Assembly: GCA_022646745.1 (NCBI GenBank)
Contig: CP060262.1
Span: 2,370,001-2,402,000, forward strand
Direction of reading: 5' to 3'
DNA length: 32,000 bases
Origin: Planctomycetales bacterium
Lineage (GTDB): Bacteria; 4484-113; JAFGCY01
Shown: one piece after another, positions 1,623-19,632 of the stretch
How positions within the stretch are numbered: position 1 is the stretch's first letter
How the letters are laid out: each line of letters starts with the position of its first letter
The notes under the pieces: model-generated
The model's database searches: none
What the model was told of the DNA's origin: nothing
What the model saw: the letters and a program-made list of their open reading frames with translations, nothing else
Position numbers and translations under genes: made by a program

Positions 1623-1631
1623 TACTAACAC

Positions 1632-1660
1632 TTGAATAGAATCCGTGAATGGTTCATAAT
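1632..1660 (+). promoter_or_regulatory. Candidate sigma70-type promoter for the PKD/Kelch lipoprotein genes
   Basis: TTGAAT (1632-1637), 17-nt spacer, CATAAT (1655-1660), read directly. It lies in the relatively AT-rich gap between efp and the next gene. Not validated. Confidence 0.3.
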
Positions 1661-1667
1661 TACCGGA

Positions 1668-1692
1668 TTAAACCCGCCTCGTGTGGGTTTAA
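1668..1692 (+). terminator. Hairpin downstream of efp; a weak terminator or a 5'-leader structure
   Basis: ttaaaccc (1668-1675) pairs with gggtttaa (1685-1692), an 8-bp stem with a 9-nt loop. It is followed only by a poor U tract (gtgttgatg), so its function is ambiguous. Confidence 0.3.
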
Positions 1693-1768
1693 GTGTTGAT
1701 GATGGGTAAGATAAAGCGTACTACGGTTTGCTTTGGGGCAAATTGCTGACATAGTCAGGAGGCTAAGG

Positions 1769-4765: not shown

Positions 4766-4817
4766 CGGAATTGGATGGGATTTGGTGAGAGATAAGATAC
4801 GACAGGAGGACTTGAGC

Positions 4818-7460
4818 GTGAAACGCTTGATCGCACTGATAGCAATCCTGATACTGGCCCTGCTGGCAAACGCCTGCGGCGGTGGTGGAAATGGATCGGA
4901 AACGATTGCGGATGGCCCGCTCACGTTGAAGTTCCTCTCTGCTCAGCCGAGCACTGGCGCTAGCCCGTTGACGGTGGTGTTCACCACGAACATCTCCGGC
5001 GGAGTCGCACCGTTCTTCTATACGTTCGACTTCAACAACGACTCGGCTCCGGACCGGTATGTCAACAACAGCTTCGACAGGACGGTCAGCGTTCAGAACC
5101 AGTACTTCCTGAACCAGGCTGATGCCGGGGGCTCCACCGCCTATGAGGCGTTCGTGAGGGTCGTGGACAGCGAGGGCACTGAAGTGAGTTCCTCGCTCGT
5201 CAACGTCACCGTGAACGCCACCGGCGATGTCGTGATCGGCGGCATTGATGTGATCTCTGAGATCCAGGACCCCGACGGCAGCTACCGCTACCGCAGCGGC
5301 GAGCCGGTCTTCTTCCGTGCCAATGCCACCGGCAGCACCGCTCTTGAGTATGAGTGGGACTTCGATGGTGACGGCGTGGTCGATTCGACCGTGCAGAACC
5401 CGCAGTACACCTTCTTCTATGATGGAAATGGTGTGAAGGTCTTCGTGGTCAAACTGCGTGTCATCAACGACAAGGGCGAAGCCGCACTTTCCGAGGCCCT
5501 CGTCCCGGTCGAGGAAGCCGATCCCGTGATCGGTCCTGACCCGGTGCCGGACTTCGACATCATCCTCACGACCAACCCGACTGCCAGCAATGGCCGCGTG
5601 GTGCTTGAGTGGGATCCCAGCGGCGCCAAGCTGCCGGCGATCGATACCGAGCCCAAGCTGGACCTCGCTGTCGTCGTTGACCCGAAGAAGCCCGGCGTGG
5701 CCCCCTTCGAGTACTACTGGGATTACCAGAGCGACAACAGCTTCGACAGCAGTGACATCTCTCCCACCGTTCCCTACTACGACCTTGAGAAGAAGATCTT
5801 CGTGAACCCGTATGTCCATGCGGAGACCGAGAAGACCTACACCCTCAAAGTGCAGGTGATTGACGGAACGGGCCGCATCCGCACCCGCACCGTCGACATC
5901 CTTTCCCGCAACGTGGCCCAGATCAACACTGAGCTCAACGTGACCGGCCAGTACGGCATCTCCAGCGCCGGCGGTGCATTCTCCGAGAACCCGCCGCTGC
6001 CCTACGATGTGGTCACCGGCCGTACCGATGTGAACAACGTCACCTGGGACTTCGACGTCAGCGGCAGCACCGGTGACTACGTCTACCAGATTGACATCGA
6101 CAACGACGGCAACGTGGACTTCCCCGCCCTGGCGGACCAGCCCACCGGCTTCGAGCCCGTCAGCGGCGGCAGCTTCAGCTACACCGCAGCCTTCGACGGC
6201 ATCACCTGGCCGGCGGTCGGTTACTTCGGTACCACCATCCGTGTCCGTGCCCTGCAGAACGCTTCCGTGATCGATGAGGTCGTGATCAACGCCCCGGTCA
6301 GCCTGGTGCAGCGCACCAAGCTGAGTGTCGGCGGTGAGTACGCCCTCGTGCCGCGGAGCCACCACCAGATGGTCGGAACCTACACTGAGGCTCCGGGCGG
6401 CGGCAACATCAACTTCCTCGCGGAGCGCCGCCTGCGGATCTTCGGTGGTGAGGACAACAGCAACCCGATTGCAACCTCCGAGACCTTCATGCAGCCCTAT
6501 GCCCAGCCCGACACCGCCGGCAACCTTGAGATCGCTCTCGAGAGCTCTGCCATGAAGGTGCAGCCGCTGGTGCAGCAGGCCACCGGTGGCTTCTCATGGA
6601 TTTCCAGCCCCGAGGAGGGTGACACCCCCTCGATCTGGCACCTGGGAGGCGAGAATGTCGTGGATGGCGTGCTGCGCTTCGCAGAGGCCACCACCTCCAC
6701 CGCATATGACAGCAACACAGGCTGGAGCATCGCCCCGACCAACATCGGTGGCGGCCCGCGCAAGGAAGCGATGGGCGTGATGGTCCCGCAGACCTGGCCG
6801 CGTTACAGCAGCTTCGACGGTGGCCTGCCGCTGAACTTCGTCTACATCGGCGGATTCAGCCCCGGAAGCGTCAACCAGGTGAATGGTTCTCTCTGGAGCC
6901 ACCAGCCCGGCCGTCCGCCGCTGTTCCTGCCTGAGTATGCTGACCTGAGTGCTGACATGCTGACCCCGCGTTACGACGGTGCGGCTGTCTACCTCAATGG
7001 CTTCATCTACGTGATCGGCGGCCGTGGTGCCAGTGGCCAGTCCACCGCCACCATGGAAATCCTGAACCTCGCCACCGGCCTGTGGGTCGCTGGCCCGCCG
7101 CTCAAGGATGCCCGCAGCGGACATGTGGCGCACGTCGTCGGTGGCAAGATCTATGTCATCGGTGGTGCCTACTATCCGTTCGACACCTCTGACAAGACCA
7201 TGGTCAGCACCGCCGAGGTATTTGACCCGAACACCCAGGTCTGGAGCTACACGGTCGCCCTGCCCAACAGCGGCGGCGTGGATGCCCGTACGGAGAATGC
7301 CGCCAGCACCGTGCTGCCCGCCCCGGGTAGCGTGAACAGCGCCGGCGCCCTCAACGCGGCCATCCTCTATCACGGTGGTTCTGACCTGAACGACACCGAC
7401 AAGTCGGATATCTACCAGTTCCAGTACCTGTACACGGTGGATCCGCCGGCAGCTCCGTAA
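4818..7460 (+). CDS. Paralogous large lipoprotein with PKD-like modules and a Kelch-like propeller
   Basis: GTG at 4818, 8 nt after AGGAGG (4804-4809); this is in frame with and internal to track ORF 4656..7460. Lipobox: IAILILALLANA-C-GGGG. PKD-like motifs: PFFYTFDFNNDS, ALEYEWDFDGDG, PFEYYWDYQSDN, DYVYQIDIDNDG. Kelch-like blades: LRIFGGEDNS, FVYIGGFSPGS, GFIYVIGGRGASG, GKIYVIGGAYY, AILYHGGSD. Confidence 0.85.
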   Translation: MKRLIALIAILILALLANACGGGGNGSETIADGPLTLKFLSAQPSTGASPLTVVFTTNISGGVAPFFYTFDFNNDSAPDRYVNNSFDRTVSVQNQYFLNQADAGGSTAYEAFVRVVDSEGTEVSSSLVNVTVNATGDVVIGGIDVISEIQDPDGSYRYRSGEPVFFRANATGSTALEYEWDFDGDGVVDSTVQNPQYTFFYDGNGVKVFVVKLRVINDKGEAALSEALVPVEEADPVIGPDPVPDFDIILTTNPTASNGRVVLEWDPSGAKLPAIDTEPKLDLAVVVDPKKPGVAPFEYYWDYQSDNSFDSSDISPTVPYYDLEKKIFVNPYVHAETEKTYTLKVQVIDGTGRIRTRTVDILSRNVAQINTELNVTGQYGISSAGGAFSENPPLPYDVVTGRTDVNNVTWDFDVSGSTGDYVYQIDIDNDGNVDFPALADQPTGFEPVSGGSFSYTAAFDGITWPAVGYFGTTIRVRALQNASVIDEVVINAPVSLVQRTKLSVGGEYALVPRSHHQMVGTYTEAPGGGNINFLAERRLRIFGGEDNSNPIATSETFMQPYAQPDTAGNLEIALESSAMKVQPLVQQATGGFSWISSPEEGDTPSIWHLGGENVVDGVLRFAEATTSTAYDSNTGWSIAPTNIGGGPRKEAMGVMVPQTWPRYSSFDGGLPLNFVYIGGFSPGSVNQVNGSLWSHQPGRPPLFLPEYADLSADMLTPRYDGAAVYLNGFIYVIGGRGASGQSTATMEILNLATGLWVAGPPLKDARSGHVAHVVGGKIYVIGGAYYPFDTSDKTMVSTAEVFDPNTQVWSYTVALPNSGGVDARTENAASTVLPAPGSVNSAGALNAAILYHGGSDLNDTDKSDIYQFQYLYTVDPPAAP

Positions 7461-7486: not shown

Positions 7487-7520
7487 GACCGCCTCCCCAT
7501 CGGGGGGGGCGGTTTTTTTT
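7487..7520. terminator. Rho-independent terminator, probably bidirectional
   Basis: ccgcctcccc (7489-7498) pairs with gggggggcgg (7503-7512), allowing one G-U pair. T8 follows on the plus strand (7513-7520). On the minus strand the same stem is followed by tcttttgt. It sits between the convergent lipoprotein gene and the chaperone operon. Confidence 0.8.
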
Positions 7521-7526
7521 ATCCCT

Positions 7527-7616
7527 GGCCGCAGCCCGCAGGTTTCAGGCATGTATATGCAGCAATGAGCCAGGGGATGCTACGTTGTGAAGGCCTGCGC
7601 CCAGCGCCAACTGGCC
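7527..7616. repeat. Copy 1 of a tandem ~85-90-nt structured repeat (possible ncRNA or REP-like element)
   Basis: Aligns with 7633-7716. Shared blocks are ggccgca, ggtttcaggc, and gggatgcta[c/a]gttgtgaaggcctg[c/a]gcccagcgcc. Internal 4-bp hairpin gcat-gtat-atgc at 7549-7560. Confidence 0.6.
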
Positions 7617-7632
7617 TGGACAGCGAAAACAA

Positions 7633-7716
7633 GGCCGCAGGTTTCAGGCCTTGCATTTGCAACGACAAGGGTAGGGATGCTAAGTTGTGAAGGCCTGAGC
7701 CCAGCGCCCAGCGGCC
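7633..7716. repeat. Copy 2 of the tandem structured repeat; abuts the stop codon of the zinc-ribbon gene
   Basis: Nested complementarity: ggccgc (7633-7638) with gcggcc (7711-7716); tcaggcc (7644-7650) with ggcctga (7692-7698); ttgc-attt-gcaa (7651-7662). Confidence 0.6.
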
Positions 7717-8322
7717 TTACACAGGCGGCAGCATGCTCTCCAGGTTGAGCCAGGCGGCCGGACGGGCATTCAGCTTGTCCAGCGCGCGCAGGTCAGCATA
7801 CACGCGCACGTAGTAGGCGCACTTGAGGTCCAGCTTGAGTTTCAGCTCCCACAGGGCCGGGTCAGCGCTGAAGTGCCGCACGCAGATTTCCATCTGGCGG
7901 GCCCCGCGCACGTACTCACCGCGGCGGGCAGAAGTCAGGGCCTGGTTGTACAGTTCCCGGGCCAGCATCTCACGCTGTCCAAGCTCAGCCAGCTGCTCGG
8001 TGAGCACGGGCTGTTCGGCAGGGCTGACCCGTGACAGCAGTTCACGGGCGCGGCCGATGTCCTGGCAGGCCAGCGCAAGCTTGCACTGCAGGGAGGCCAG
8101 CACCTGGGGGTCGACGTCACTGAGCTGCGAAAGGCGGCTGATGATAGCCTCAGCCTTCTCCAGTTCCCCTTCAGTGATCAGCTCGCGGGCATTTCCGATG
8201 TAGCTGGCCGTGATTGCCGCGATATTGGACCAGGGCGCGAGATCCGCCCCGCAACCGGGACAGGAACCCGCGCCCTCCTTGAGCGTCGTTCTGCATAATG
8301 GACAGGCGTCCAGGACCAGCAC
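7717..8322 (-). CDS. Zinc-ribbon (CxxC-x10-CxxC) protein with a helical, TPR-like C-terminal region, translationally coupled to the Hsp70 gene
   Basis: 201 aa. N-terminus MLVLDA-CPLC-RTTLKEGAGS-CPGC-GADL, followed by helical repeats resembling TPR. The GTG start at 8322 overlaps the upstream TAG stop by 1 nt (minus strand TAGTG). No specific family recognised. Confidence 0.7.
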   Translation of the reverse strand: MLVLDACPLCRTTLKEGAGSCPGCGADLAPWSNIAAITASYIGNARELITEGELEKAEAIISRLSQLSDVDPQVLASLQCKLALACQDIGRARELLSRVSPAEQPVLTEQLAELGQREMLARELYNQALTSARRGEYVRGARQMEICVRHFSADPALWELKLKLDLKCAYYVRVYADLRALDKLNARPAAWLNLESMLPPV

Positions 8323-10067
8323 TACATGCCCCAGTCAGACAGGATCAGGCTGGCGGTACGCATCTGCTTCTCAATGTCCTCTTCCTCCTCGGCACGGATC
8401 GCCTTTTCCAGGTCCTCCGTCAGCGAGCGAAGCTTGGACAGCTCCATTTCGTTCATCTTCTTGCTGCCGTCGACCACCTGCTTGGTGAGGGTCTTCAGCT
8501 TCTCGTAGACACCCTGAGCCTCGAACAGGATCTTGCCCTTCTCGCGCTGGGCGATCAGGGATCCGCTCATCTGGGCCACCTCGCGCTCGGCATCGGAGAT
8601 GTCCTCACCGGTCAGGCGCTGCTTGGAGGCCTTGATGGTGATGCCCTTTCCGACGCCGGTCTGGCGGTCCTTGGCGGTGACCTTCACGATGCCGTTCACG
8701 TCGTAGTCGAAGCTGACCTCGACCAGGCTCTCGCCGGCCATGCCGGTGGAGATGCCGCCCAGCACGAACTCACCGAGGCTGGAGTTCTCGTTGGCCTTCA
8801 TGCTCTCACCCTGCAGCACGTGGATCAGGGCTTCGGTCTGGCCGTCGATGGTGGTCTTGTACAGCTTCTTCTCGGAGCAGGGGATGGAGGTGTTGCGGCT
8901 GATGATCGGGCTGAAGCGGTTGTTCTCCGTCTCGATGCCGAGCGTGAACGGGGCCACGTCGACCACCACCAGCTCCTCCAGGTTACCGCGCTTGATGCCG
9001 GCCTGGATGGCGGCGCCGGCGGCGACGCACTCCTCCGGGTTGATGTCGGTGTAGGCTTCCTTGCCGGTGACGTTCTTGACCAGGCGGCCCACGGCGGGCG
9101 TGCGGGTCATACCACCGACGAGGATCACGGCGCCGAGGTCCTCGGGCTTCAGGTTGGCATCACTGAGCGCCAGCTCCATCGGCTGCAGGGTCTGGTCCAC
9201 CAGGTCCTGCACCAGGTCCTCATACTTGGCACGGGTCAGGGTCTCGTTCAGGTGCAGCGGCTCATCACCACCGGTGTAGATGAACGGCAGGTTGATGTTC
9301 GTCTCAAGCAGGCTGGAGAGGTCGATCTTGGCGTTCTCCGCGGCTTCCTTGAGGCGCTGCATGATCGCGCGCTGCTGGGAGACGTCGGAGATCGAACGCA
9401 GGTCGATTTTCTCCTTCTCCTTGAAGCGGTCGATCAGGAACTCGACGACTCGGTAATCGAAGTCGTCACCACCGAGGTTGTTGTTACCGGTGGTGGCAAG
9501 CACCTTGAAGGCGCCGTCCACGAGGCGGATGACGGAGACATCGAACGTGCCTCCACCGAGGTCGTAGACCATGATGGTCTTCGCCTCGCCGCGCTCGAAA
9601 CCGTAGGCCAGGGCGGCTGCCGTGGGCTCGTTCAGAATACGCTCGACCTTGAAGCCGGCGATCTCGCCCGCATCCTTGGTGGCCTGGCGCTGGGAGTCCG
9701 TGAAGTAGGCCGGCACCGTGATCACCGCTTCCTCGACGATGTCGTTGAGGTAGGTTTCCGCGTCCAGCTTCAGCTTCTTGAGGATCACCGCGCTGATTTC
9801 CTGCGGGGAGAACTCCTTGTCGCCGATGCTGATGCGGCGGTCGGTGCCCATCAGGCGCTTGATGCTGGTGATGGTGCGCTCGGGGTTGGCAACGGCCTGG
9901 TTCTTGGCCGGTTCACCGACGAGCAGCTCACCGGTCTCGGTGAAGCCGACAACTGACGGGGTGATGAACTTGCCTCGCTCATTCGGGATGAGCTGGGGCT
10001 GGCCGTCAATGATGGCCGCAATCAGCGAGTTCGTCGTGCCGAGGTCGATTCCAACAATTTGACCCAT
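8322..10067 (-). CDS. dnaK: Hsp70 family chaperone, DnaK-like, Gram-positive-type short form with a shortened C-terminal lid
   Basis: 581 aa. Motifs IVGIDLGTTNS, DLGGGTFDVS, VILVGGMTRTPAV and NPEECVAAGAAIQAG. It shows the ~24-aa deletion typical of Gram-positive-type DnaK (MGTDRRISIGDKEFSPQE). The substrate-binding domain is divergent (VVDVAPFTLGIET, SIPCS). The lid is about 100 aa with no G-rich/EEVD-like tail. Strong RBS TAAGGAGA lies upstream of the ATG. Confidence 0.9.
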   Translation of the reverse strand: MGQIVGIDLGTTNSLIAAIIDGQPQLIPNERGKFITPSVVGFTETGELLVGEPAKNQAVANPERTITSIKRLMGTDRRISIGDKEFSPQEISAVILKKLKLDAETYLNDIVEEAVITVPAYFTDSQRQATKDAGEIAGFKVERILNEPTAAALAYGFERGEAKTIMVYDLGGGTFDVSVIRLVDGAFKVLATTGNNNLGGDDFDYRVVEFLIDRFKEKEKIDLRSISDVSQQRAIMQRLKEAAENAKIDLSSLLETNINLPFIYTGGDEPLHLNETLTRAKYEDLVQDLVDQTLQPMELALSDANLKPEDLGAVILVGGMTRTPAVGRLVKNVTGKEAYTDINPEECVAAGAAIQAGIKRGNLEELVVVDVAPFTLGIETENNRFSPIISRNTSIPCSEKKLYKTTIDGQTEALIHVLQGESMKANENSSLGEFVLGGISTGMAGESLVEVSFDYDVNGIVKVTAKDRQTGVGKGITIKASKQRLTGEDISDAEREVAQMSGSLIAQREKGKILFEAQGVYEKLKTLTKQVVDGSKKMNEMELSKLRSLTEDLEKAIRAEEEEDIEKQMRTASLILSDWGM

Positions 10068-10159
10068 CTATGTCTCCTTACCGGATCAGGCCGGCTTCGT
10101 TTTGTACTCTGCCCGTGTCCGGCTGAAAGCCCCGCAGGGTAATGTTCTGACCATTCCGG

Positions 10160-10831
10160 TCATGCGTTTGTTTCGCTGTTCTTCACCACCACTACCTGGG
10201 CGGTGCGGAACACCTGGTCTCCAAACATGTAGCCCTTCAAAAGAATCCGGGACACCTTGCCGTCCTCCCTGCCGGGATGCGGTTCGGTACCCATCGCAAG
10301 ATGCAGGTGCGGATCGAAGCTGTCCCCGATCTGCATCTGCTTCAGGCCATGCCTGCTCAGCGTGTCCTGAATCAGCTGATAGACGGACTGCAGGCCGGTC
10401 ATCACGCCCTGGGGGACGCTGCCCGGCTGGTTCTCCATCAGCTCAAACACCCTGTCCAGGGAATCCACCCCGATCAGCAGGTCCTTGAAAAGGCGCCTGA
10501 TCTGGGATTCATCCTCCTTGCTGCTCAGCACCTGCTCGAGCGGGCGCAGCTTCATCTCCAGCGAACGCAGCTGCTCGGCGGTCCTGTCCAGTCCGACGGC
10601 TTCAATGGCCGGCATGCGCAACTGCTCCACACCGACTCGCAGCCGGGACAGTTCCGCACGCAGTTTCCCCACGTCAGCCATCACCGAGGAGACGTTTGTC
10701 CAGACCTCTGACGACAGGTCGGGAGAGGGCTGGACTGTGTCCTCGACAGGGAAGAGATTATAGTATTGCTCAGTACTGAAGTCAATTTCAGCAACCAGCC
10801 TGGCAAGCTCTGCGGAGCGCTCCTGCTGCAT
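10160..10831 (-). CDS. grpE: GrpE-like nucleotide exchange factor, divergent N-terminal half
   Basis: The C-terminal domain matches the GrpE beta-domain pattern (GLKQMQIGDSFDPHLHLAMG....GKVSRILLKGYMFGDQVFRTAQVVVVKN). It is preceded by LLIGVDSLDRV, which resembles L.v.DnleRA. The ATG at 10831 overlaps the TGA of the upstream TPR gene (TGATG); an in-frame GTG at 10834 is an alternative start. Confidence 0.75.
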   Translation of the reverse strand: MQQERSAELARLVAEIDFSTEQYYNLFPVEDTVQPSPDLSSEVWTNVSSVMADVGKLRAELSRLRVGVEQLRMPAIEAVGLDRTAEQLRSLEMKLRPLEQVLSSKEDESQIRRLFKDLLIGVDSLDRVFELMENQPGSVPQGVMTGLQSVYQLIQDTLSRHGLKQMQIGDSFDPHLHLAMGTEPHPGREDGKVSRILLKGYMFGDQVFRTAQVVVVKNSETNA

Positions 10832-13800
10832 CACACCAGCGTCCCGTCAGGAATCTTCAGGTTGATCTGCAGCAGCTCCAGCAGCGGCGAGGTGATCTCA
10901 CCCTCATCCGCCTTCCAGGGCTCAAGCTGCGAGTAGTCCGGGTCCGGCACGCTCTTGGGCATCGGCAGGGTCTCGAAGCTGATCTTGCCGTCACGCGGCA
11001 GCTTGGTCAGCCTGCCGCGGGTGGCCTCGACATCCACCGGATTGAACACGAATAGGTTGATCGCCTGGCGCTTCTTCTTGTTGGCGTAGAGGTTCGTGTA
11101 GGCCTCCTCCACCAGCATGAAGTCATCCGCGTGGCGCTCGGGGTTGAAGATCTTGATCAGGCGGAAGTACTCCCGCTCGATCTGGGTCTCATGCGCATTC
11201 TTGTCGAGGCTGAGCATCCAGTAGAACTGGTTGGCCTTCTTGAAGAAGGCGATGCTGTCCTCGGCGCGCACCTTCGTCAGGTCAAACTCCGGGCGGCCCT
11301 TCGTCAGCGCGAAGGTGTTCATCGCCTTCTCGATGGTGTTGATGTCCTGCGAAAGGTGGCTGTGCTTGCGCGGGTTCTGGTTGATCATCACCTGCCAGGT
11401 CTTGCCGAGGCGGTGGAAGGAGCGCGTGCACTCCTCGTAGTTGTCAGTCATCAGGTAGCCGATCGCCAGGTTCTGCTGGATCGCCGCGTTGTCCTCATCG
11501 AACTTGAGCGACTTCTTCCATTCCTCCAGCGCCAGCTTGTGCTGGTCCTTGCGGGCCAGCTGGTAGGCGTTCAGGTCCAGCGTGGCGGCGTAGAGCACCG
11601 GCAGGTCCGGGTTGCTCTCGTCCACCTTGCGCAGCGTCTCCCAGGTTGCCATCGCCTCCTGGGCGTAGCCGGCGGCCATGAAGGCCATGCCGATCTCGGT
11701 GAACTGGCGGATCTTCTTGTCCGGCGCGCTCTGGGCCTCGTTGCAGATCCGGAGCAGCTCCTTCCAGTGGTGCACCGCCATGTCGCGCTTGTTCATCGCG
11801 GAGTAGGCGCGGCCGAGGTACCAGTGCACCTGGGTGTCCTTCGGGTCCTGGCGCAGCATGCCGTCCAGCAGGCTGACGGCCCGTTCGTACAAGCCGTCGT
11901 GGATCAGCACGGCGGCCTGCATCAGCGGCGGGGCCTGATCAGGGAACTCGACATTCTGCCAGACTTTGCCGCCCTGCGCCTCGGGATCGCTCAGGAAGCA
12001 GTCCACCATGCGCGGGAAGTTGTCATTGGCTAAATTGCCACGCCTGGCGAGGTCGAGGAATACGCGCCAGGCCTTGTCTGGCTGCTGGTTGAGCATGTAG
12101 GCGTAGGCGTTGGAGCGCTCCAGCGAGGGATCCTCGTCCTTCCAGGAGATCTCGCGGTAGTAGATGATCGCCTTGGCGTATTCCTTCTTCAGGTGGTAGG
12201 CGTAGGCGAGGTAGGTCTTCGTCAGCATCTGGTTCGGCAGGATGCGGTGCGAGACGTCGAGGACCCGCGTGGCGCGGTCAAGGTCACGGGAGAAGAATGC
12301 CTTCTCGCCGTACAGCCGCAGCACGTCGACGATCACCTGGCGCAGGGTACGGTCGTTGCGGTTGACCTCCACGGCACGGGTGAACAGCGGCAGGCCCTCA
12401 CCGAGCTTGTCCTCACGCAGATGCTTGTGGCCCTGGAAGAACAGTGCCAGTGACAGGAACACCTGCTCGGCCCGGCCACTCGGGTTGAGCCGCAGGATCT
12501 CCTCGAGGTGCATGATCGCTTCTGACAACTCACCGAGGCGGATCCGCACGATGCCGATCTGCAGCCCCAGCCAGCGCTGGAACTTGACCAGGCGTGGGTC
12601 CTTGACCAGCTTCAGGTAGCGCTGGTGCGCGTCCTGCAGCTTGCCGTCCAGTTCAAGGTTGATGGCCGTGCGCAGTTCAAGCAGGAAGTCCGGGATCTCG
12701 TCCGCGGATTCAAGCGAACTGAGCAGCGCACCGGCCTCGCTGACCTGGCCCAGCATCTGCCGGGCGGCCGCGATCCAGTAGTCACGCTTGGCGCCGAATT
12801 CCTTGCTGTCGAGGCTTTCCAGCAGGCTGATGGCTTCCTTGGCACGGCCTTCCATGATGTAGATCTTGGCAAGGCGGAAGCTGATCGTGCTGCTCGGGTT
12901 GAGCCTGGAGGCATCTTCGTAGGCACGGCTGGCCAGCGGGTAGTTGAAGTGCTCGATAAAGAAGTCGCCGACATCCTGCAGTACGGCGGCCCGCCCAGCT
13001 GCGGCGACGGTCTCGGTCAGGCGCGTACTGTCTGCCTCGAAGCAGCGCACCGCCACATTGAGCAGCATTGCGTCTTCCTTGCCGTCGTTGAGGATGTCAA
13101 TCAGCAACGCGAAAGCAATCTCCTCCGGGGTGCTGAACTTCTTCAGCTCAAACAGCTTCCGGTAGACCCGCATCTCGACACTGCCGGGCTGCGGCCTGGC
13201 GCCGCTTTCGAGGATGATCTCGGCCAGCAGGTCAACCAGGCGCGGATTGATGTCGTCTGATTTCTCGGTCTTGTCGAACAGGGCGTAGTAGGCCTGCTGG
13301 GCCTGCTCGCCGCGGCGGCCGGTGTTCAGGAAGCAGTTCGTCAGCGCTTCGTCATAGATCGCCGCCAACGGGCCTTTCTCAGGCCGGCCGAGCACCACAA
13401 GGTAGTTCAGCGTCTCGGCGTTGAAGGCCTTGGCCTCCAGCCGGATCTCGGCCAGCACCTCGGCGAGCATCTTTCTGACGTCCTCGTCGACGAACTGGAA
13501 TGCCTGCTTGTAGATGCTGTCGGCAATTTCGTCACGGCGGTCGGCGGCATGGTAGGCGCGAGCCAGGATCGCTGTGATCACGGGGTCCGTCGGGTTGTCA
13601 ACCAGCGCTTCCTCGTAGATCTTCTGCGCCTGGTCGTCAACGCGCGTCAGCTCAGCGTATTGGTGCGCGAGGATCTGGTAGATGCGGCGCTGCGGCCGGT
13701 CGGGCCACTGCGAGAGGTAGCTCTCGTATACCCGCATCGCGAACTCGTCCTCGCGGTCGTTGGCAAGGCAGTGCTCAGCGAGGATCAGCACGGCGCGCTT

Positions 13801-14808
13801 CGTGACCGTGCGCTGCTCGAAGGCACGCGTCATGATCTCGATTGCTTCGTCGTCAAACTTGTTGCTTTCGGCGAGCTTGTCGCTCAGGAAGGTCAGCAGG
13901 TTGCGGTCGCTGAAGCCCTGGCGGTAGATCGCGAGGCACATCCCGAGCTTGTCAAGGAAGTCCAGCCCGCTGTTGAGCGCGAGCTCGGTCAGCTTCTGCA
14001 GCACCTCGTTTTCGAGCTTGCCGCGCTCCAACGCCCGCTCGATGTAGGGGATGGTGCCAGGGTGGAAGTCCTCATGCTCGATGTAGTAGCTGGCCAGCAG
14101 CTGCAGGGCCTGCAGGTTGTCAGAAGTCTCCACCACGTCGCGGTAGACTCCGGCGGCGAACTCGTCCTTCTCGTTGTTGACGATCAGGCTCTCCAGCAGC
14201 ACCTCACGCAACTTGCGGTCAGCCTTGCGGTTCTGGTAGGCGTTGCGGTAGATCTCGAGTGCTTCGGGATCGCGGCGGTTGTCACGCAGGTAGTGGTCGG
14301 CGAGCACGCCAAGCCCGTCCTTCCAGAGCGGGTAGGCGATCGCGGTGTCCCGCAGGAAGGCGAACTCCTTCTCATCGAGGTGCTCGCCTTTCTGGCTGTA
14401 CAGGTTCTTGGCAAGGTTCAGCAGCAATCGCTTGGAGTTGCTGTCCTGTTCACCGGCACGGCGCACGAGGTCAAACACCTCAGGCTCGATCCACCTGCTG
14501 TCCACCAGCCTGTCCGCGATGGCGGGGAGCTGCTGGGGGGCAAAGCCGGCGAGTCTATCAGCGTGGGCCAGGGCTTCTGCGGCCTTGCCGGAGGCAACAT
14601 AGGCATTGAACAGTTCAAGGGAAAGCACGCCGATCTGGCTGCGCAGTTCGGCATCCCCCTCCTTGCCTTCGGAGTCCTCCGCCATCAGCTCATTCACAAT
14701 CTCGGCAGCATCTCCGAGCTTTCCCCCGTCAAGGAGCTTGGAAGCCTGCTTCAGACGAGCAGACTGTTTGCTTGCTGAGCCCGAGAACAGTTTTTCGAAT
14801 AGACCCAT
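10831..14808 (-). CDS. 1325-aa TPR-repeat protein with a C-terminal degenerate J-like domain (HPD replaced by NPE)
   Basis: Long helical repeat protein with many TPR-like 34-aa units (A..Y..AL....P....A...LA.AY). The C-terminal segment YWMLSLDKNAHETQIEREYFRLIKIFNPERHADDFMLVEEAYTNLYANKKKRQ aligns with the J-domain template Y..LG......eIkkaYrkLa..yHPDr.....F..i.eAY..L.d..kR. I checked the NPE codons directly at 11137-11145 (minus strand AAC CCC GAG). Confidence 0.8.
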   Translation of the reverse strand: MGLFEKLFSGSASKQSARLKQASKLLDGGKLGDAAEIVNELMAEDSEGKEGDAELRSQIGVLSLELFNAYVASGKAAEALAHADRLAGFAPQQLPAIADRLVDSRWIEPEVFDLVRRAGEQDSNSKRLLLNLAKNLYSQKGEHLDEKEFAFLRDTAIAYPLWKDGLGVLADHYLRDNRRDPEALEIYRNAYQNRKADRKLREVLLESLIVNNEKDEFAAGVYRDVVETSDNLQALQLLASYYIEHEDFHPGTIPYIERALERGKLENEVLQKLTELALNSGLDFLDKLGMCLAIYRQGFSDRNLLTFLSDKLAESNKFDDEAIEIMTRAFEQRTVTKRAVLILAEHCLANDREDEFAMRVYESYLSQWPDRPQRRIYQILAHQYAELTRVDDQAQKIYEEALVDNPTDPVITAILARAYHAADRRDEIADSIYKQAFQFVDEDVRKMLAEVLAEIRLEAKAFNAETLNYLVVLGRPEKGPLAAIYDEALTNCFLNTGRRGEQAQQAYYALFDKTEKSDDINPRLVDLLAEIILESGARPQPGSVEMRVYRKLFELKKFSTPEEIAFALLIDILNDGKEDAMLLNVAVRCFEADSTRLTETVAAAGRAAVLQDVGDFFIEHFNYPLASRAYEDASRLNPSSTISFRLAKIYIMEGRAKEAISLLESLDSKEFGAKRDYWIAAARQMLGQVSEAGALLSSLESADEIPDFLLELRTAINLELDGKLQDAHQRYLKLVKDPRLVKFQRWLGLQIGIVRIRLGELSEAIMHLEEILRLNPSGRAEQVFLSLALFFQGHKHLREDKLGEGLPLFTRAVEVNRNDRTLRQVIVDVLRLYGEKAFFSRDLDRATRVLDVSHRILPNQMLTKTYLAYAYHLKKEYAKAIIYYREISWKDEDPSLERSNAYAYMLNQQPDKAWRVFLDLARRGNLANDNFPRMVDCFLSDPEAQGGKVWQNVEFPDQAPPLMQAAVLIHDGLYERAVSLLDGMLRQDPKDTQVHWYLGRAYSAMNKRDMAVHHWKELLRICNEAQSAPDKKIRQFTEIGMAFMAAGYAQEAMATWETLRKVDESNPDLPVLYAATLDLNAYQLARKDQHKLALEEWKKSLKFDEDNAAIQQNLAIGYLMTDNYEECTRSFHRLGKTWQVMINQNPRKHSHLSQDINTIEKAMNTFALTKGRPEFDLTKVRAEDSIAFFKKANQFYWMLSLDKNAHETQIEREYFRLIKIFNPERHADDFMLVEEAYTNLYANKKKRQAINLFVFNPVDVEATRGRLTKLPRDGKISFETLPMPKSVPDPDYSQLEPWKADEGEITSPLLELLQINLKIPDGTLV

Positions 14809-14892
14809 ACTGACTTTATTCAGACCTGCTGTAACTAATAGGGTTCGACCTCGCCTCAGGGGGCCAGCCGATTAAGATTAATAGTGTAGCAG

Positions 14893-15999
14893 TTACCTGA
14901 TGTTAAGTAACTGGTAGAGGAAATTCCCGCCCTTCTTTTCCGCCTTGATGTCCTCCTCCTTGAGGTCGGACAGCAGCTGTTTCTGCTGGCGGTTTAGCTT
15001 CTGGGGCACGTAGAGCTTCACCCGCACGTGCAGGTTGCCCTTTCCATGGCCGCGCAGGCGGCTCAGGCCATGCCCGCGCAAGGTGAACTGGCTGTGGCTT
15101 TCGGTGCCGGCCGGGATGCGCAGCTTCTCCGTACCCTCGAGGGTGGGCACATCCACCGTGGCGCCGGACACGAGGTCTGTGTAATGCACTGGCAGTTCGA
15201 CGAACAGGTCGGAACCGTCTCGCTGGAACTGCTTGTCCGGCTCCACTGTGACCTGCACATACAGGTCGCCGGGGATCCCACCACCGGGGGCCGCATGGCC
15301 CATCCCGCTCATTTGCAACAGGTTGCCATTGTCAATGCCGGCCGGGATGCTCACATCAATCCGGCGTTTCTTATACTGGAAACCGGTGCCGCGGCAGGAC
15401 TTGCAGGGGTCGCTGACGGTCACACCGTCGCCACGGCAGGTCGGGCAGGTGGTCTGGGTGCGCATCGCCCCGAGCAGGGTCTCACGCACCTGCACCACGG
15501 CCCCGCGGCCGCCGCAGGTGCGGCAGGTCTCGGGCTTGCTGCCGGCTTCAGCACGGCTGCCATCGCAGCTTTCGCAGGTCTCGCGCCGCTCGATGTCGAG
15601 CTCCACATGCTGTTCCGTCAGGCAGTCGCGCAGCTTCTGGTGCACACTGCGCTGGATGTCCTCGCCACGCCGCTGGCGCCGTCCAGCGCCACCCCCGCCA
15701 CCGCCGAAGAACATCTCGAACAGGTCGTTGATTGAGCCGAAGCCCTCGCCAAACGGGCTGCCGCCGCCCATCCCGCCGGGGCCGCCGACAGTGCCATACT
15801 GGTCATATTGCGCGCGCTTCTGCGGATCCGAGAGGATCTCGTAGGCGACGCTGATTTCCTTGAAGCGCTCCTCAGCCCCGCTGTCGCTGTTGACATCGGG
15901 GTGGTACTGGCGCGCCAGCTTGCGATAGCTCTTCTTGATCTCATCCGCGCTCGCTTCACGCGAGACCCCGAGGATCTCATACAGGTCTGTTGAACTCAT
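14893..15999 (-). CDS. dnaJ: Molecular chaperone DnaJ (type I: J domain, G/F region, four CxxCxGxG zinc-finger motifs)
   Basis: [33 protein letters not shown] with an intact HPD. G/F-rich linker. [24 protein letters not shown] and CKSCRGTG. The ATG overlaps the hrcA stop (ATGA at 15996-15999). Confidence 0.95.
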
Positions 16000-17072
16000 C
16001 CATCCCTCCCGGGCAGCAGGCCCTCACTGCTGTCGGACAGTGCACTGGCGATGCTCTCGCCGATCAGCTTGATCCAGGGCAGGGTGCGGTCGTAGAACAG
16101 GCGCGTCGGGCCGATCACGCCGAGCGTGCCCTCGCCGGCGCGAGGCACGTCATAGCGGCTCAGCACCAGGCTGACCTGGTGCAGGTCGGGGTCACTGTTC
16201 TCGCTGCCGATGATGGTCTGCACGCTGCGGCTGTTGAGCCGGCTGCGCAGGTTGCGGATGAAGCGGTCACGGTCCTGCAACACGTTGACAACGCTGTTCA
16301 GGCTCTCGCTGGAGCTGAACTCCGGCTGCACTACCAGCTTCAACGCATTGCTGAACATCACGCGCTCGCCGCTGAAGCTCATGCCCTCGATGAAGGAGGA
16401 CACCGCCTCGTACATCCCTTCCGGCAGGTTGACGGTCTCGATGAAGATGCGGCGCATCTCCTGGTAGTCAACCTCAATGATGCTGCGGTGGCGCAGGTAG
16501 TTCGTCAGGCTTTCGCTCAGGCGCGCGAGGTCCAGCGAGCTGGTTTCCAGCGGCACCCTGATGCGGCGGCTCTGCATCACGCCGGTCGCCGTAACGAGTA
16601 CCGCTAGGATCTCCTGCTCTCCGGCCTCGACGAAGTTGAGGCTGCGGATCTCCAGCGCGCTGGGCCGCGGCAGGCTGACCCAGGCCACGTAGCCGGTCAT
16701 CTCCGTGAGCAGGTCCAGCGTGCCCTCGAACAGTGATTCCGTCTCGCTGGACAGCTGGGAATAGACCTCGGCCACGCGGCCACGATCGGCGAGCGTCTCG
16801 CTCAGGTCAGACAGCAGTTCCTCCACGAGGTAGCGGTAGGCAAGGTCAGTCGGGATCCGTCCGCCGGAAGTGTGGGGCTGCATCAGGAAGCCCATCTCCT
16901 CCAGCGCGGCCAGCTCATTGCGGATTGTGGCACTGCTGGCCTTGACCGACTCGGAGATCAGGGACGAACTGACGGGGCGCACGTTGCGCACATAGCTGCT
17001 GATCACGTGGCGCAGGATGGCACGGCGCCGCTGTGTCAGCCTCCCAAGCAGGTCCTGTCTGAGAATCTCCAT
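15996..17072 (-). CDS. hrcA: Heat-inducible transcription repressor HrcA
   Basis: 358 aa. N-terminal winged-helix region [68 protein letters not shown] is the HrcA signature. First gene of the operon. Confidence 0.9.
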
Positions 17073-17108: not shown

Positions 17109-17138
17109 AATATACGCAATTGCGGGGAATTGTGTTAC
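17109..17138 (-). promoter_or_regulatory. Weak candidate promoter upstream of hrcA
   Basis: On the minus strand: GTAACA (17138-17133), 18-nt spacer, TATATT (17114-17109). Downstream of it is a 7-bp hairpin gccgggc-gata-gcctggc in the putative leader. No CIRCE inverted repeat seen. Confidence 0.25.
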
Positions 17139-17154
17139 CCGCGGACCATCTCAG

Positions 17155-17673
17155 TTATTCCCTGATGTAGGCCCGGGTAATGAAATCGGCTTCGGGGAAC
17201 ATGTCCTTGAACACCTGGATGCCGCCTGGCTGCTGCAGGCCGAACTGGTCATCGAACTCGCAGCGGTGCAGGCTGTCCGCCACTTCCATGCCTTCCTTAA
17301 CACGGGCGAAGGCCGGGAAGCCCTGCCCATCGAGGAAGTGGTTGTCCTTGAAGTTGACGAAGATGTGCGAGCTGCGGCTGTTGGGGGCACCGGTGCGGCC
17401 AAAGGAGATGTTGCCGCGGCTGTTGCCTTCCACGATCGGCTCGTCCTTGACCGTCTGTGACCCGATGCCTTCATTGTGCTCGGGGTTTGCGCTGATGCCA
17501 CACTGTGCGACGAAGTTGTCAATCACGCGGAACCAGGGCGCACCGTCATAGAATCCGGACTTCACCAGTCCGAGGAAATGCTCGGTGCCCAGCGGGGACC
17601 AGTCCTCCACGACCTCGATCACGATGTTGCCGCTCGTGGTCTCAAAAACCACTTCTGTAAGCTTGCCTGCCAT
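17155..17673 (-). CDS. Cyclophilin-like peptidyl-prolyl isomerase, divergent, no signal peptide
   Basis: Start moved to the ATG at 17673, which follows GAGGAG (17685-17680) by 6 nt. The 21 upstream codons of the track ORF are occupied by a terminator hairpin. Cyclophilin-fold motifs: VVFETTSGNIVIEV, GFYDGAPWFRVIDNFVAQCG (vs FHRVI.GFMIQGG), GAPNSRSSHIFVNF (vs N.NGSQFFI) and FARVKEGMEVAD. Confidence 0.8.
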   Translation of the reverse strand: MAGKLTEVVFETTSGNIVIEVVEDWSPLGTEHFLGLVKSGFYDGAPWFRVIDNFVAQCGISANPEHNEGIGSQTVKDEPIVEGNSRGNISFGRTGAPNSRSSHIFVNFKDNHFLDGQGFPAFARVKEGMEVADSLHRCEFDDQFGLQQPGGIQVFKDMFPEADFITRAYIRE

Positions 17674-17695
17674 GCGATTCTCCTCGTCCAATAAT

Positions 17696-17725
17696 GAAAA
17701 AGCTGCCGGCCCGGGGGCCGGCAGC
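17696..17725 (-). terminator. Rho-independent terminator of the upstream cyclophilin lipoprotein gene
   Basis: On the minus strand: gctgccggccc-cc-gggccggcagc (17725-17702), an 11-bp perfect stem followed by TTTTT. It lies between the TAA at 17737-17739 and the RBS of the next gene. Confidence 0.85.
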
Positions 17726-17736
17726 GGTGTAGTCAA

Positions 17737-18591
17737 TTACTCGCGGATGTAGGCCCGCTTGATGAAGTCAGCGTCGGGGAAGCGTGCCTTGAAGGCGTCC
17801 AGGCCGCCGACGTTCTGCAGGGCGCCCTGGTCGCGGAACTCGCACTTGAACAGGCCGTCCGCGATCTCCATGCCCTCCACGACCTGCGCGAAGCAGGCAA
17901 AGCCCTGCGGGTTGAGCGCGGAGCTGTTGTCAGTGAAGTTGATGAAGATATGGGTGCTGCGGCTGTTGGGCATCTGGCTCTTGCCGAAGGCCACGAAGCC
18001 GCGCTTGTTGCCAACCACCACGGGCTCGTCCTGGATGGTCTTGTTGCTCCACTTGGTGTTCATCTCCGGGTCGGCGGCCACGCCGCACTGGGCCACGAAG
18101 CCGTCCAGCACGCGGAACCAGGGTGCGCCGTCGTAGAAGCCGGCCTTGACCAGCTCGAGGAAGTGCTCGGAACCGAGCGGGCTCCAGGCGCTGTGCACCT
18201 CAAGTACGATGTCGCCGTCGGTCGTCTCCAGCACGACGGTGGTCACCTTGTCCTCCGGCTCGGTCTCGCCGCAGGGGTTCTCACCGCAGGGGTTGTCCGT
18301 GGCAGCGTTGTCCACCGCGCAGGGGTTCTCGCCACACGGGTTCTCACCGCAGGGATTCTCGCCACAGGGGTTCTCACCGGCGGTGCAGGGGTTCTCCTCA
18401 GCGGCACAGGGGTTCTCCTGGCCGGCGCAGGGGTTTTCCTGGGCACCACCGTTGCCGTTGTTGCTGGCATTGGTGGAGCTGGTGCTGGTGCTGCCATTGC
18501 TGGCGCCTGCATTGGAGTCCGTCCGCGGACAGCCGGCAAGCAGGCTGAGGAACATCACGCTGACAAGCGCGAAGAGGATGGTCCTGTTCAT
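17737..18591 (-). CDS. Cyclophilin-like PPIase lipoprotein with a Cys-containing (GENPC)n linker
   Basis: Signal peptide and lipobox MNRTILFALVSVMFLSLLAG-C. Low-complexity S/T/N stretch. About ten NPC units (ENPCAGQENPCAAEENPCTAGENPCGENPCGENPCGENPCAVDNAATDNPCGENPCGE). The cyclophilin-like domain is paralogous to 17155..17673 (SAWSPLGSEHFLELVKAGFYDGAPWFRVLDGFVAQCG, MPNSRSTHIFINF, FAQVVEGMEIAD). Confidence 0.85.
   Translation of the reverse strand: MNRTILFALVSVMFLSLLAGCPRTDSNAGASNGSTSTSSTNASNNGNGGAQENPCAGQENPCAAEENPCTAGENPCGENPCGENPCGENPCAVDNAATDNPCGENPCGETEPEDKVTTVVLETTDGDIVLEVHSAWSPLGSEHFLELVKAGFYDGAPWFRVLDGFVAQCGVAADPEMNTKWSNKTIQDEPVVVGNKRGFVAFGKSQMPNSRSTHIFINFTDNSSALNPQGFACFAQVVEGMEIADGLFKCEFRDQGALQNVGGLDAFKARFPDADFIKRAYIRE
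18265..18441 (-). repeat. In-frame tandem 15-bp (pentapeptide GENPC) repeat tract within the lipoprotein gene
   Basis: The plus strand shows repeated gcaggggttctc(a/g)cc / acacgggttctcacc units. Four near-perfect consecutive 15-mers span 18319-18378, with more degenerate copies on both sides. Confidence 0.85.
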
Positions 18592-18708
18592 GGTCTACTC
18601 CGTTCCTTGTATTCGTCCTTCCGTCTGACACCCGGAAGGACAGGCTGGGATTCTGGATAAACGGACATTTTAGCATGCCCGCCGGGCTGCTGGGGAGAAC
18701 TGAATCTA

Positions 18709-19500
18709 TCAGTTCTCCAGCGCGGCCATCTCGATCACGTCGCCCTGCGGGTACTGCCGCTTGAATGCCATGACGCCTTCACTGCCGATCTGTTCGATCA
18801 GGCCAGGCTTGGGATCGCCGGTCCTGAACAGCTCGTCAAGCACGTCCATACCCTCCATCACTTCGGCGAAGGGGACGAAATAGTTGTCCGGGCCGTCCAG
18901 GTTCGGGTTGTCCGTCAGGTTAACGAAGAATTGTGTGTTACGGCCGTCGGGATTGTTCTGGGCAAAGCTGACCATCCCACGGGTGTTGCTGCCGTGCATC
19001 GGGTCGCGCTTGACGCTTTCGGCGATGTGCAGCGTGTTCGTTTCCGGGTCAGGCGCGATGCCGGTCTGGGCAATGTTGTCGTTGACGCGGAACCAGGGTG
19101 CGCCGTCGTAGAACTTCTCCTCGACGAGCTGGATGAAGCGGCGGGCACCGTTCGGGGACCAGCTGGAATGCACAAGTATCCTGACATTACCTTTGCTGGT
19201 ACGGATGAACACCCAGCGGTCCGGTGGCGGGATGTAGGTTTCCTCAGTGCTGCCGGTCGCCTTGGTGCTGCTGGGCACTGAATCACTGACTCGTTGGGCT
19301 TCCGGGCGGTAGTCGTACTTCTCGATCAGCTTGTTCTCACCGTCCACGACGGGCAGGTCGCTGATCACCCGGTAGGCCAGGCCGTTGTCATTGTCAGCCT
19401 GGGGCTCCTCATTTTTCGGCTTGGTGCTGCATCCGAACAGGCTGGCCAGGAGGACCAGGGATAGCAGCAGGCTCAGGCGCGGGAGCTTCATGTCGATCAT
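18709..19500 (-). CDS. Cyclophilin-like PPIase lipoprotein, third paralog
   Basis: Internal start of the 515-aa track ORF: MIDMKLPRLSLLLSLVLLASLFG-C-STK. ATG at 19500, with an alternative ATG at 19491. The longer ORF would run antisense through purA. Domain motifs: SSWSPNGARRFIQLVEEKFYDGAPWFRVNDNIAQTG, DGRNTQFFVNLTDNPNLDG and FAEVMEGMDVLDEL. Confidence 0.8.
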   Translation of the reverse strand: MIDMKLPRLSLLLSLVLLASLFGCSTKPKNEEPQADNDNGLAYRVISDLPVVDGENKLIEKYDYRPEAQRVSDSVPSSTKATGSTEETYIPPPDRWVFIRTSKGNVRILVHSSWSPNGARRFIQLVEEKFYDGAPWFRVNDNIAQTGIAPDPETNTLHIAESVKRDPMHGSNTRGMVSFAQNNPDGRNTQFFVNLTDNPNLDGPDNYFVPFAEVMEGMDVLDELFRTGDPKPGLIEQIGSEGVMAFKRQYPQGDVIEMAALEN

Positions 19501-19560
19501 TTCAAGGGGCGCGAATGCTTGTAATCCGCGAACATGGCATTTTAGCAGCCTGAGGTCTAT

Positions 19561-19589
19561 TTGACCACGGGATGCACCGCCCCTAGAAT
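19561..19589 (+). promoter_or_regulatory. Strong sigma70-type promoter candidate for purA
   Basis: TTGACC (19561-19566), exact 17-nt spacer, TAGAAT (19584-19589). It is about 44 nt upstream of the purA ATG in the divergent intergenic region. Confidence 0.6.
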
Positions 19590-19632
19590 GTGATTTTAAA
19601 CAAGGCAAGTTTTCTTCTAGGAGTGAGTGGCA

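Follow-up and report, generated by a model that had tools for sequence, protein, structure and literature searches.

The chaperone locus described here raises the question of what kind of Hsp70 machine is encoded when two genes foreign to the textbook operon stand among hrcA, dnaJ, grpE and hsp70. The locus lies in a stretch of 32,000 nucleotides (the window) at positions 2,370,001 to 2,402,000 of contig CP060262.1 (assembly GCA_022646745.1, Planctomycetales bacterium). Six linked genes on the minus strand code for HrcA, DnaJ, a very large tetratricopeptide repeat (TPR) protein with a J-like domain (hereafter the giant), GrpE, an Hsp70 and a small zinc-ribbon/TPR-like protein. The original prediction took them for one expanded operon, and its six genes with their junctions and gaps match the list of open reading frames to the base. 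The comparison with relatives shows that the cluster is made up of two parts: the hrcA-dnaJ pair, which can be separated, and a module of four genes in the fixed order giant-grpE-hsp70-zinc-ribbon. We consider this module to be the main DnaK/GrpE machine of the lineage, equipped with two dedicated TPR co-chaperones, and give this reading a probability of about 0.55–0.6. What is new here is an Hsp70/GrpE system with dedicated J-like TPR co-chaperones that lack the HPD tripeptide; the combination of TPR repeats and a J-type domain is in itself already known in bacteria.

The six window proteins were compared by tblastn with each fetched locus, and called genes were used for further contigs. All four module genes were seen in loci L001–L004, L006–L011, L013, L014, L030, L005, L023 and L028, of which L005 carries 99–100%-identical copies of the window genes while L023 and L028 are near-identical copies of L007. 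The order giant-grpE-hsp70-zinc-ribbon was found in 17 of 17 loci on other contigs that were long enough to hold all four genes, and in L012, L021 and L024 the same order begins before the contig ends. An arrangement that recurs in every one of 17 loci is not due to chance. It had been proposed that two non-canonical genes are embedded among the chaperone genes and that their neighbourhood should be compared in related genomes; this comparison shows them to be fixed partners of grpE and hsp70, syntenic in every relative examined. Across the loci the identity of the giant to the window copy ranges from 34% to 99%. The lowest value comes from L011, a distant lineage with an Hsp70 that is 65% identical to that of the window; in two other distant lineages, L013 and L014, the giant has 1326 and 1320 aa and the Hsp70 is 73% and 72% identical, respectively. 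Among the relatives from UBP7, tblastn identities were 81–98% for Hsp70, 54–87% for the giant, 46–86% for GrpE, 35–83% for the zinc-ribbon protein, 55–88% for DnaJ and 53–86% for HrcA, so that hsp70 is the slowest-evolving gene of the cluster. It should be noted here that the label Planctomycetales bacterium is used at NCBI for this metagenome-assembled genome and for several relatives, and that sister assemblies carry the name of the candidate phylum UBP7; the name Planctomycetales probably serves as a placeholder.

The hrcA-dnaJ pair behaves differently from the module. Of the 16 loci that reach upstream of the giant, 12 have a class A dnaJ together with hrcA 5' of the module (a set that includes two near-identical copies of one locus), and in all of these 12 except L009, which has a gap of about 1.8 kb, the pair directly adjoins the giant. 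It is missing beside the module in L001, where rbfA/truB lie divergently upstream, in L013, where LiaF-like genes are found there, and in L014, where groES-groEL lie divergently upstream. In L011 no HrcA or DnaJ match was present in the 3 kb 5' of the giant, and absence there is probable. On the other hand, L026, the one informative locus of a metagenome scan with HrcA, has the order cyclophilin-cyclophilin-hrcA-dnaJ; a convergent Omp85 gene comes next, and neither dnaK nor grpE lies nearby. A TATAAT-like box is present 25–45 nt 5' of the giant start in L001, L002, L007–L010, L013 and L014, whereas the window spacer has only TATTAAT at this place. The separability of hrcA-dnaJ and the box 5' of the giant together divide the region into two units, and the single expanded operon that had been postulated cannot be maintained in that form. 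The controlling inverted repeat of chaperone expression (CIRCE; TTAGCACTC-N9-GAGTGCTAA) was not found in the window at up to three mismatches, nor in the window and 16 related loci (L001–L016) at up to four arm mismatches; a divergent operator may exist.

The giant is identical to database entry H7A35_09275, which lies on a 4.1-Mb contig. Including this entry it has 36 full- or near-full-length homologues at 53–100% identity, 35 of them with 1303–1335 aa and one partial sequence of 1016 aa. Eighteen TPR-type Pfam families match the protein, and its mean column identity in an alignment of 20 homologues, which is used in the following, is 67%. Near the C-terminus, residues 1195–1248 match Pfam DnaJ with 27.6 bits (E 3e-6) against a gathering score of 27.8, and the more distant giants reach 30–44 bits, above that score. 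This J-like stretch is among the best-kept segments of the protein (conservation 0.86 vs 0.69 for the whole), and the sequence YFRLIKIFNPERHADDFMLVEE within it is essentially invariant. The position of the HPD tripeptide is occupied by NPE in 20 of 20 homologues as well as in L011 and L014, and by DPE in L013; HPD itself was never seen in the giants. A profile of the C-terminal 305 residues matches the J domains of DNAJA3, E. coli DnaJ and Thermus DnaJ2 in register (E 5e-4 to 5e-3), and the J-like profile search also returns ordinary N-terminal J domains. The AlphaFold2 model of the giant has a mean predicted local distance difference test (pLDDT) score of 83.5 and shows TPR hairpins and behind them four helices, of which the first and last are short and the middle two long, with the NPERH loop between the second and third. 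This order of helices I-II-loop-III-IV indicates a J topology; pLDDT in the region is mostly in the mid-80s to mid-90s and about 73 at the loop. The kinship to J domains is real but remote, and is visible to profile methods only. The four-helix J fold is predicted, the HPD tripeptide is replaced non-conservatively, and the giant accordingly belongs to the type IV or pseudo J-domain proteins as defined in a recent review (PMC13254874). The earlier description of the large protein as TPR plus J-like was therefore right, with the addition that the J-like domain is a non-HPD one.

Behind the J-like domain the giant carries a tail with short kept motifs, namely SFE, PPDYxQL and, near the C-terminus, KIPD; the invariant residues are S1277, F1278, E1279, P1288, D1291, Q1294, L1295, K1318, I1319 and D1321. 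The pLDDT is below 65 throughout from about residue 1271 and below 50 in three segments (among them residues 1277–1284 and the last 11 residues), which suggests that the tail is probably a disordered region of linear motifs. A Foldseek search of the PDB with the AlphaFold2 models for the giant and for the 201-aa zinc-ribbon protein gave only generic TPR matches with E > 0.002, and in the giant model the TPR part swamps the J-like part.

The Hsp70 appears clearly to be of the DnaK type. It scores 605 bits with Pfam and 664 bits with the DnaK equivalog NF001413, above the cut-off of 648; its best solved match is Geobacillus DnaK 2V7Y (E 1e-154, 54% identity overall), and the top solved matches are all DnaK. 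The motifs GIDLGTTNS, NEPTAAALAYG and DLGGGTFDVS are intact, so that the protein is predicted to be ATPase-competent; the hydrophobic linker VVVDVAPFTLG is present and the beta part of the substrate-binding domain and the helical lid are kept. The protein aligns over its whole length with Geobacillus and E. coli DnaK; the alignment with the latter stops at E. coli residue 591, and the disordered acidic tail is therefore absent. At the substrate arch the window protein has Glu for Met404 and Thr for Ala429 of E. coli. The arch Glu was found in four of four clades with the giant (UBP7, L011, L013 and L014), and the position is Ile or Val in four clades without it (L015–L018). The C-terminus also varies with the lineage: it reads LSDWG[ML] in UBP7 (LSDWGM in the window), IADYSY in L013, DFG in L014 and IADYAR in L011, all with the giant, and LSDAEL or LSDADI in clades without it. 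The sample is small, and the pattern is consistent with scaffold and chaperone evolving together.

HrcA and DnaJ are canonical, as was claimed from the start. HrcA scores 252 bits with TIGR00331 (cut-off 197) and matches Pfam HrcA and HrcA_DNA-bdg, and DnaJ scores 407 bits with TIGR02349 (cut-off 377), matches Pfam DnaJ, DnaJ_CXXCXGXG and DnaJ_C and has its HPD motif in the context QYHPDVN. GrpE belongs to the GrpE fold: the Pfam match has 81 bits against 25.8 and residues 70–218 match Thermus GrpE 3A6M. The Pfam match covers residues 105–218 only, which bears out the remark that the N-terminal half is divergent, and the protein is a genuine GrpE despite its diverged N-terminus.

Profile searches had been proposed for the two unusual proteins; besides TPR repeats and the borderline DnaJ match in the giant they gave a weak zinc ribbon in the 201-aa protein (E 0.006). 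Four cysteines of the latter (CPLC...CPGC) are invariant in 24 homologues, in which the motifs ARELYN..L..AR.G, W.LKLK and ARP...LE.LLPP are also found. Its AlphaFold2 model (pLDDT 89) has a zinc ribbon followed by helical hairpins, and the PDB search returned generic TPR folds only. A homologue lies 3' of hsp70 in every giant-bearing locus. It also lies 3' of a short Hsp70 in L015, which has GrpE and Hsp70 and no giant, so that the link to Hsp70 is not confined to giant-bearing lineages. In L014 the homologue (10767–11513) ends in a hydrophobic stretch (FGLMLAGAQIVLLIIIIVILLTR) that resembles a C-terminal membrane anchor and is absent from the window copy.

The giant does not stand alone. A profile of the J-like domain and tail was searched in 1.84 billion representative proteins, which returned about 25 giants of 1295–1334 aa and then proteins of 90–560 aa, mostly with an N-terminal J-type domain. 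HPD is present in only 10 of the 131 profile-aligned matches. The other triads are SPE (26), PPE (25), NPE (21), TPE (12), DPE (12), PPD (8), GPE (3) and so on, and are called xPE here. The xPE proteins sampled are above the threshold of Pfam DnaJ and have TPR repeats, and some of them end in a SEC-C zinc motif; the nearest relatives of the J-like domain are J-like/TPR (+SEC-C) proteins of 450–500 aa. An Hsp70 gene lies beside them in three of three sampled contexts and grpE in two. The order is J-like/TPR-GrpE-Hsp70 (584 aa) in L038/L039 and GrpE-Hsp70 (583 aa)-TPR protein-J-like/TPR/SEC-C in L036. In L040 (2987–7245) Hsp70 fragments of 116 and 181 aa and a DUF2357 protein are followed by J-like/TPR/SEC-C, which may be a decayed or unusual Hsp70 context. 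The Hsp70s near these smaller proteins (about 584 aa) are only 39–43% identical to that of the window, and the one in L036 scores 462 bits, far below the DnaK cut-off. In L037 (8001–15651) a distant giant TPR/J-like gene (NPERY) is followed by grpE and then by an rpsP-khpA-rimM-trmD-rplS cluster, with no adjacent Hsp70. Matches and contexts together make the UBP7 giant the largest form of a broad non-HPD J-like/TPR family.

This large set of xPE J-like domains fused to TPR repeats is apparently uncharacterised. In a survey of about 280,000 J proteins, sequences lacking a full HPD were discarded and HPE was the only variant taken further (PMC10410713); the xPE class is therefore not part of it. 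According to a 2026 review, HPE is the only variant that seems tolerated for ATPase stimulation, a J domain without HPD being otherwise dead, and whether other deviations are accidents or selected is called enigmatic (PMC13254874). Our search of the literature on dnaK operons with TPR genes and on UBP7 chaperones found nothing relevant. We put forward, tentatively and at less than even odds, that the xPE J-like/TPR proteins could be a widespread and undescribed co-chaperone class that has been selected without HPD and is wired to GrpE and short, tail-less Hsp70s. The most extreme member would be the UBP7 giant, where C-terminal motifs (LSDWG[ML] of Hsp70, KIPDWT[IV]L of the giant) would keep scaffold, zinc-ribbon adaptor and Hsp70 together in the manner of eukaryotic EEVD-TPR docking.

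Is the module the main machine of the cell or a parallel system? The former is supported by the slow evolution of Hsp70, by hrcA and dnaJ adjoining the module and groESL adjoining it in one lineage (L014, where the module is divergent from groES-groEL), by the lone hrcA-dnaJ locus L026, which has no other dnaK, and by the passing of the NF001413 cut-off with all top solved matches being DnaK. Moreover, only 5.7% of 5551 prokaryotic genomes have two PRK00290-type DnaKs (PMC8265645). No second Hsp70 of the 4.1-Mb contig was found among the best 120 Hsp70 matches, which is weak support since a 50%-identical paralogue would rank lower. Several observations weigh against this reading. With the stricter DnaK equivalog TIGR02350 the Hsp70 reaches 643 bits, below the cut-off of 822, and its substrate-binding beta domain is only 45% identical to Geobacillus DnaK compared with 58% for the nucleotide-binding domain, in line with the divergence first noticed in the substrate-binding domain. 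GrpE is below every NCBIfam equivalog cut-off, and the two failures are what a diverged paralogous pair would show. The module moves independently of hrcA-dnaJ like a cassette (L001, L013, L014 and probably L011), and pairwise BLASTP did not align the J-like domain with its counterpart in the window DnaJ. The docking roles of the J-like domain and of the short C-terminal motifs are, moreover, putative. GrpE-linked specialised DnaK paralogues exist, such as SglK with GrpS of Myxococcus. SglK is a second PRK00290 protein (PMC8265645). These observations would fit a second, specialised Hsp70 system that serves narrow clients or one assembly pathway while an ordinary DnaK/GrpE is encoded elsewhere in the genome, with E. 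coli HscC and its DjlB/DjlC or Myxococcus SglK/GrpS as analogues. The altered arch, the missing tail and a self-contained cassette with its own probable promoter, found without hrcA-dnaJ, also agree with it. Further, in other bacteria the partners of xPE J-like/TPR proteins are Hsp70s that have diverged more, and the diverged HscC is known to work with J proteins of the HPE type (PMC13254874). Such a parallel system is possible but distinctly less probable than the main machine. It would have as its chaperone the most conserved gene of the cluster, which passes NF001413 and stands beside hrcA and the only dnaJ seen, whereas the module-free hrcA-dnaJ adjoins no other dnaK. The rarity of DnaK duplicates and, weakly, the best 120 matches count against it as well.

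The partner of the J-like domain could also be sought in the neighbouring DnaJ, with whose J domain it might pair in the style of Pam16-Pam18, tethering or throttling DnaJ on the TPR scaffold. ATPase stimulation is currently held to allow HPE as the only variant triad, and Pam16 is a precedent for a J-like regulator (PMC13254874); in most UBP7 loci dnaJ is indeed the immediate upstream neighbour. However, where the units split, the giant stays with grpE-hsp70 and not with dnaJ, and the related xPE proteins adjoin Hsp70, and usually GrpE, without a DnaJ present. R1216 and K1219 in helix II and the Pro-Glu of the loop are kept, which is compatible with contact to the conserved Arg of Hsp70 in VERILNEPTAA. 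We consider pairing with DnaJ improbable. Still further down stands the view that the TPR and zinc-ribbon genes are unrelated passengers of a dnaK operon. TPR proteins are common and promiscuous, and the fold searches against the PDB gave generic TPR matches only, but order, start/stop overlaps and protein lengths are strictly kept across lineages down to 34% identity of the giant. A J-type domain is part of the giant, the residue at the Hsp70 arch changes with the presence or absence of the giant, and the zinc-ribbon family follows a short Hsp70 even where the giant is absent (L015). Synteny brings the passenger view close to refutation, and we regard it as hardly credible.

If the module is the main DnaK/GrpE machine, its working could be pictured as follows. 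The C-terminal J-like domain of the giant would dock at the J-site of Hsp70, where it would give no trigger for ATP hydrolysis or would alter the coupling, His and Asp of HPD being replaced by Asn/Asp and Glu. The solenoid of about 1100 TPR residues may hold clients or partner proteins, and together with the zinc-ribbon adaptor it may select or hold clients. The normal ATPase trigger would be supplied by canonical DnaJ or by bound substrate, and GrpE would reset the cycle. The start/stop overlaps may couple the members of two pairs, the giant with GrpE and Hsp70 with the zinc-ribbon protein, so that both partners would be made in matched amounts. The arch Glu, the LSDWG[ML] end of Hsp70 and the kept disordered tail of the giant could reflect a co-evolved, narrowed or redirected client range, and the short C-terminal motifs may dock in TPR grooves as a bacterial analogue of EEVD-TPR docking.

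The features of the locus are collected in the table.

Table. Features of the chaperone locus; positions refer to the 32,000-nt window
Feature	Position	Strand	Description
hrcA	15996-17072	-	358 aa; heat-shock repressor; forms with dnaJ the upstream unit, separable from the module
dnaJ	14893-15999	-	368 aa; canonical class A J-domain protein with HPD
giant TPR/J-like gene	10831-14808	-	1325 aa; helical-repeat scaffold with C-terminal J-like domain and predicted disordered tail
grpE	10160-10834	-	224 aa; nucleotide exchange factor; start overlaps the stop codon of the TPR gene
hsp70	8322-10067	-	581 aa; short DnaK-type, without acidic C-terminal tail, substrate arch altered
zinc-ribbon/TPR-like gene	7717-8322	-	201 aa; start overlaps the stop codon of hsp70
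J-like domain of the giant	11065-11226	-	aa 1195-1248; N1222-P1223-E1224 (nt 11137-11145) at the HPD position
C-terminal tail of the giant	10834-11064	-	aa 1249-1325; short kept motifs
dnaJ/TPR-gene spacer	14809-14892	-	84 nt; possible promoter of the four-gene module
promoter-like site 5' of hrcA	17109-17138	-	GTAACA-18-TATATT; 9/12 matches in consensus scan; weak
terminator-like hairpin	7488-7526		bidirectional, with U/A tracts; from sequence, the scan giving the plus-strand version

The genes are closely packed. hrcA and dnaJ overlap by 4 nt (ATGA), the giant gene and grpE by 4 nt if grpE starts with the GTG at 10834 (with the following ATG as start the junction reads TGATG), and hsp70 and the zinc-ribbon gene by 1 nt (TAGTG); besides the spacer between dnaJ and the giant there is one gap of 92 nt (10068–10159) between grpE and hsp70. 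The minus-strand scan found no terminator-like site in any intergenic spacer of the cluster. RNA folding of the three intergenic spacers and of one relative gave z-scores of +0.4 to -1.4, with no thermometer or leader structure indicated; the value for the 84-nt spacer, 0.37, is not significant. The Rfam and tRNA scans of the window gave no matches, and none of the four module proteins matched an anti-phage defence model in PADLOC. The best promoter-like match of the region, TTGACT-17-TATAAT (11/12), lies at 10757–10785 on the minus strand, inside grpE near its 5' end. Since relatives keep the GrpE N-terminus at the protein level, this site would be either a chance match or an internal promoter of hsp70. 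At its 3' end the cluster is closed by the hairpin, which separates the zinc-ribbon gene from a convergent Kelch/PKD gene. The spacer between the zinc-ribbon gene and this terminator (7533–7717) is occupied by two tandem copies of a unit of about 100 nt (77–94% identity over two sub-blocks), one of them with a 20-nt inverted repeat, for which Rfam gave no match.

The flanks of the cluster deserve a short description. Directly 5' of hrcA and on the same strand lie three genes for cyclophilin-type peptidyl-prolyl isomerases (17155–19500, minus). This order of three is kept in the close relatives L003 and L004, and one or two copies lie 5' of hrcA in L002, L007, L010 and L026. For the outermost cyclophilin gene the most likely start is near 19500, at MIDMKLPRLSLLLSLVLLASLFGC; this sequence is a lipoprotein signal that includes a lipobox, and at least this cyclophilin is therefore probably extracytoplasmic. 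A 515-aa open reading frame on the minus strand (18709–20256) is over-extended, its first 210 or so codons being antisense to purA (19627–20901, plus), the product of which matches Adenylsucc_synt with E 1e-156; the seeming conservation of this frame in L002 is an antisense shadow of purA. Divergent promoter-like sites were found at 19539–19589. On the other side, positions 13–7460 code for an M24 peptidase, elongation factor P (EF-P) and two very large PKD/Kelch/SprB-repeat proteins of 1010 and 934 aa. This flank is syntenic with the module in L002 and L013, which indicates that the neighbourhood is old within the lineage.

How does the system compare with those already described? With the canonical hrcA-grpE-dnaK-dnaJ operon of Bacillus and other Firmicutes it shares HrcA, GrpE, a DnaK-type Hsp70 and a class A DnaJ on one strand, and its Hsp70 is likewise of the Gram-positive type without an insert in the nucleotide-binding domain, with Geobacillus DnaK as best match. 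It differs in that dnaJ lies directly 3' of hrcA, in the two extra fixed genes, in the CIRCE result given above, in the tail-less Hsp70 with a changed arch, and in GrpE and Hsp70 being below strict equivalog scores. A precedent for a lineage-specific assembly factor in a dnaK operon is DafA of Thermus thermophilus, which has 78 residues and, unlike the giant, no TPR or J-like domain. Among eukaryotic proteins, DNAJC7/TPR2 and DNAJC3/p58IPK resemble the giant in domain order, with the TPR repeats first, a J-type domain near the C-terminus and a disordered tail at the end, and p58IPK was among the Foldseek fold matches. They have a true HPD and about nine TPRs in 450–500 aa, whereas the giant has 1325 aa and N/D-P-E. 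The giant does not belong to their type, as it is without HPD and its Hsp70 ends in LSDWG[ML] and not in EEVD, and the likeness is one of domain types and not evidence of common descent. DNAJC7 depends on the docking of its TPRs to the C-terminal motif of Hsp70 (PMC13254874), which is our model for the putative SDWG docking. The TPR-plus-J architecture had been described as known from eukaryotic co-chaperones; DnaJ-TPR is in fact a common class C architecture in bacteria, combining a J-type domain with TPR repeats (PMC10410713). In these class C-type relatives the J-type domain is N-terminal and the protein has one third of the size of the giant, the J-like domain of which is C-terminal.

A recognisable J fold with a replaced HPD is also found in Pam16 and DNAJB13 (type IV or pseudo J) and in DjlB/DjlC. 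Unlike these, the xPE class also lacks the His (N/D/S/T/P-P-E), and its domain is strongly conserved and fused to a TPR solenoid. HscC is not known to need GrpE, whereas the giant is operon-linked to it. DjlB/DjlC (HPE) with HscC nevertheless demonstrate that a variant triad can accompany a dedicated diverged Hsp70 (PMC13254874, PMC10410713).

The biology of Hsp70 in bacteria rests on DnaK, DnaJ and GrpE. The region described here is a natural test case for non-HPD J domains: the J-like domain is well kept, no reversion to HPD was seen even between deeply diverged lineages, GrpE and a predicted ATPase-competent Hsp70 are fixed in the same operon, and the domain has hundreds of smaller relatives. 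The genes of the module are few and their proteins look soluble. For UBP7, a phylum known only from metagenomes, the module is a chaperone trait that helps to define it. If the xPE proteins are indeed a selected co-chaperone class, a J domain can lose HPD under selection and stay functional, and the loss need not be decay. With its non-HPD J-like domain the giant suggests that a bacterial Hsp70 may be steered in a way not described so far.

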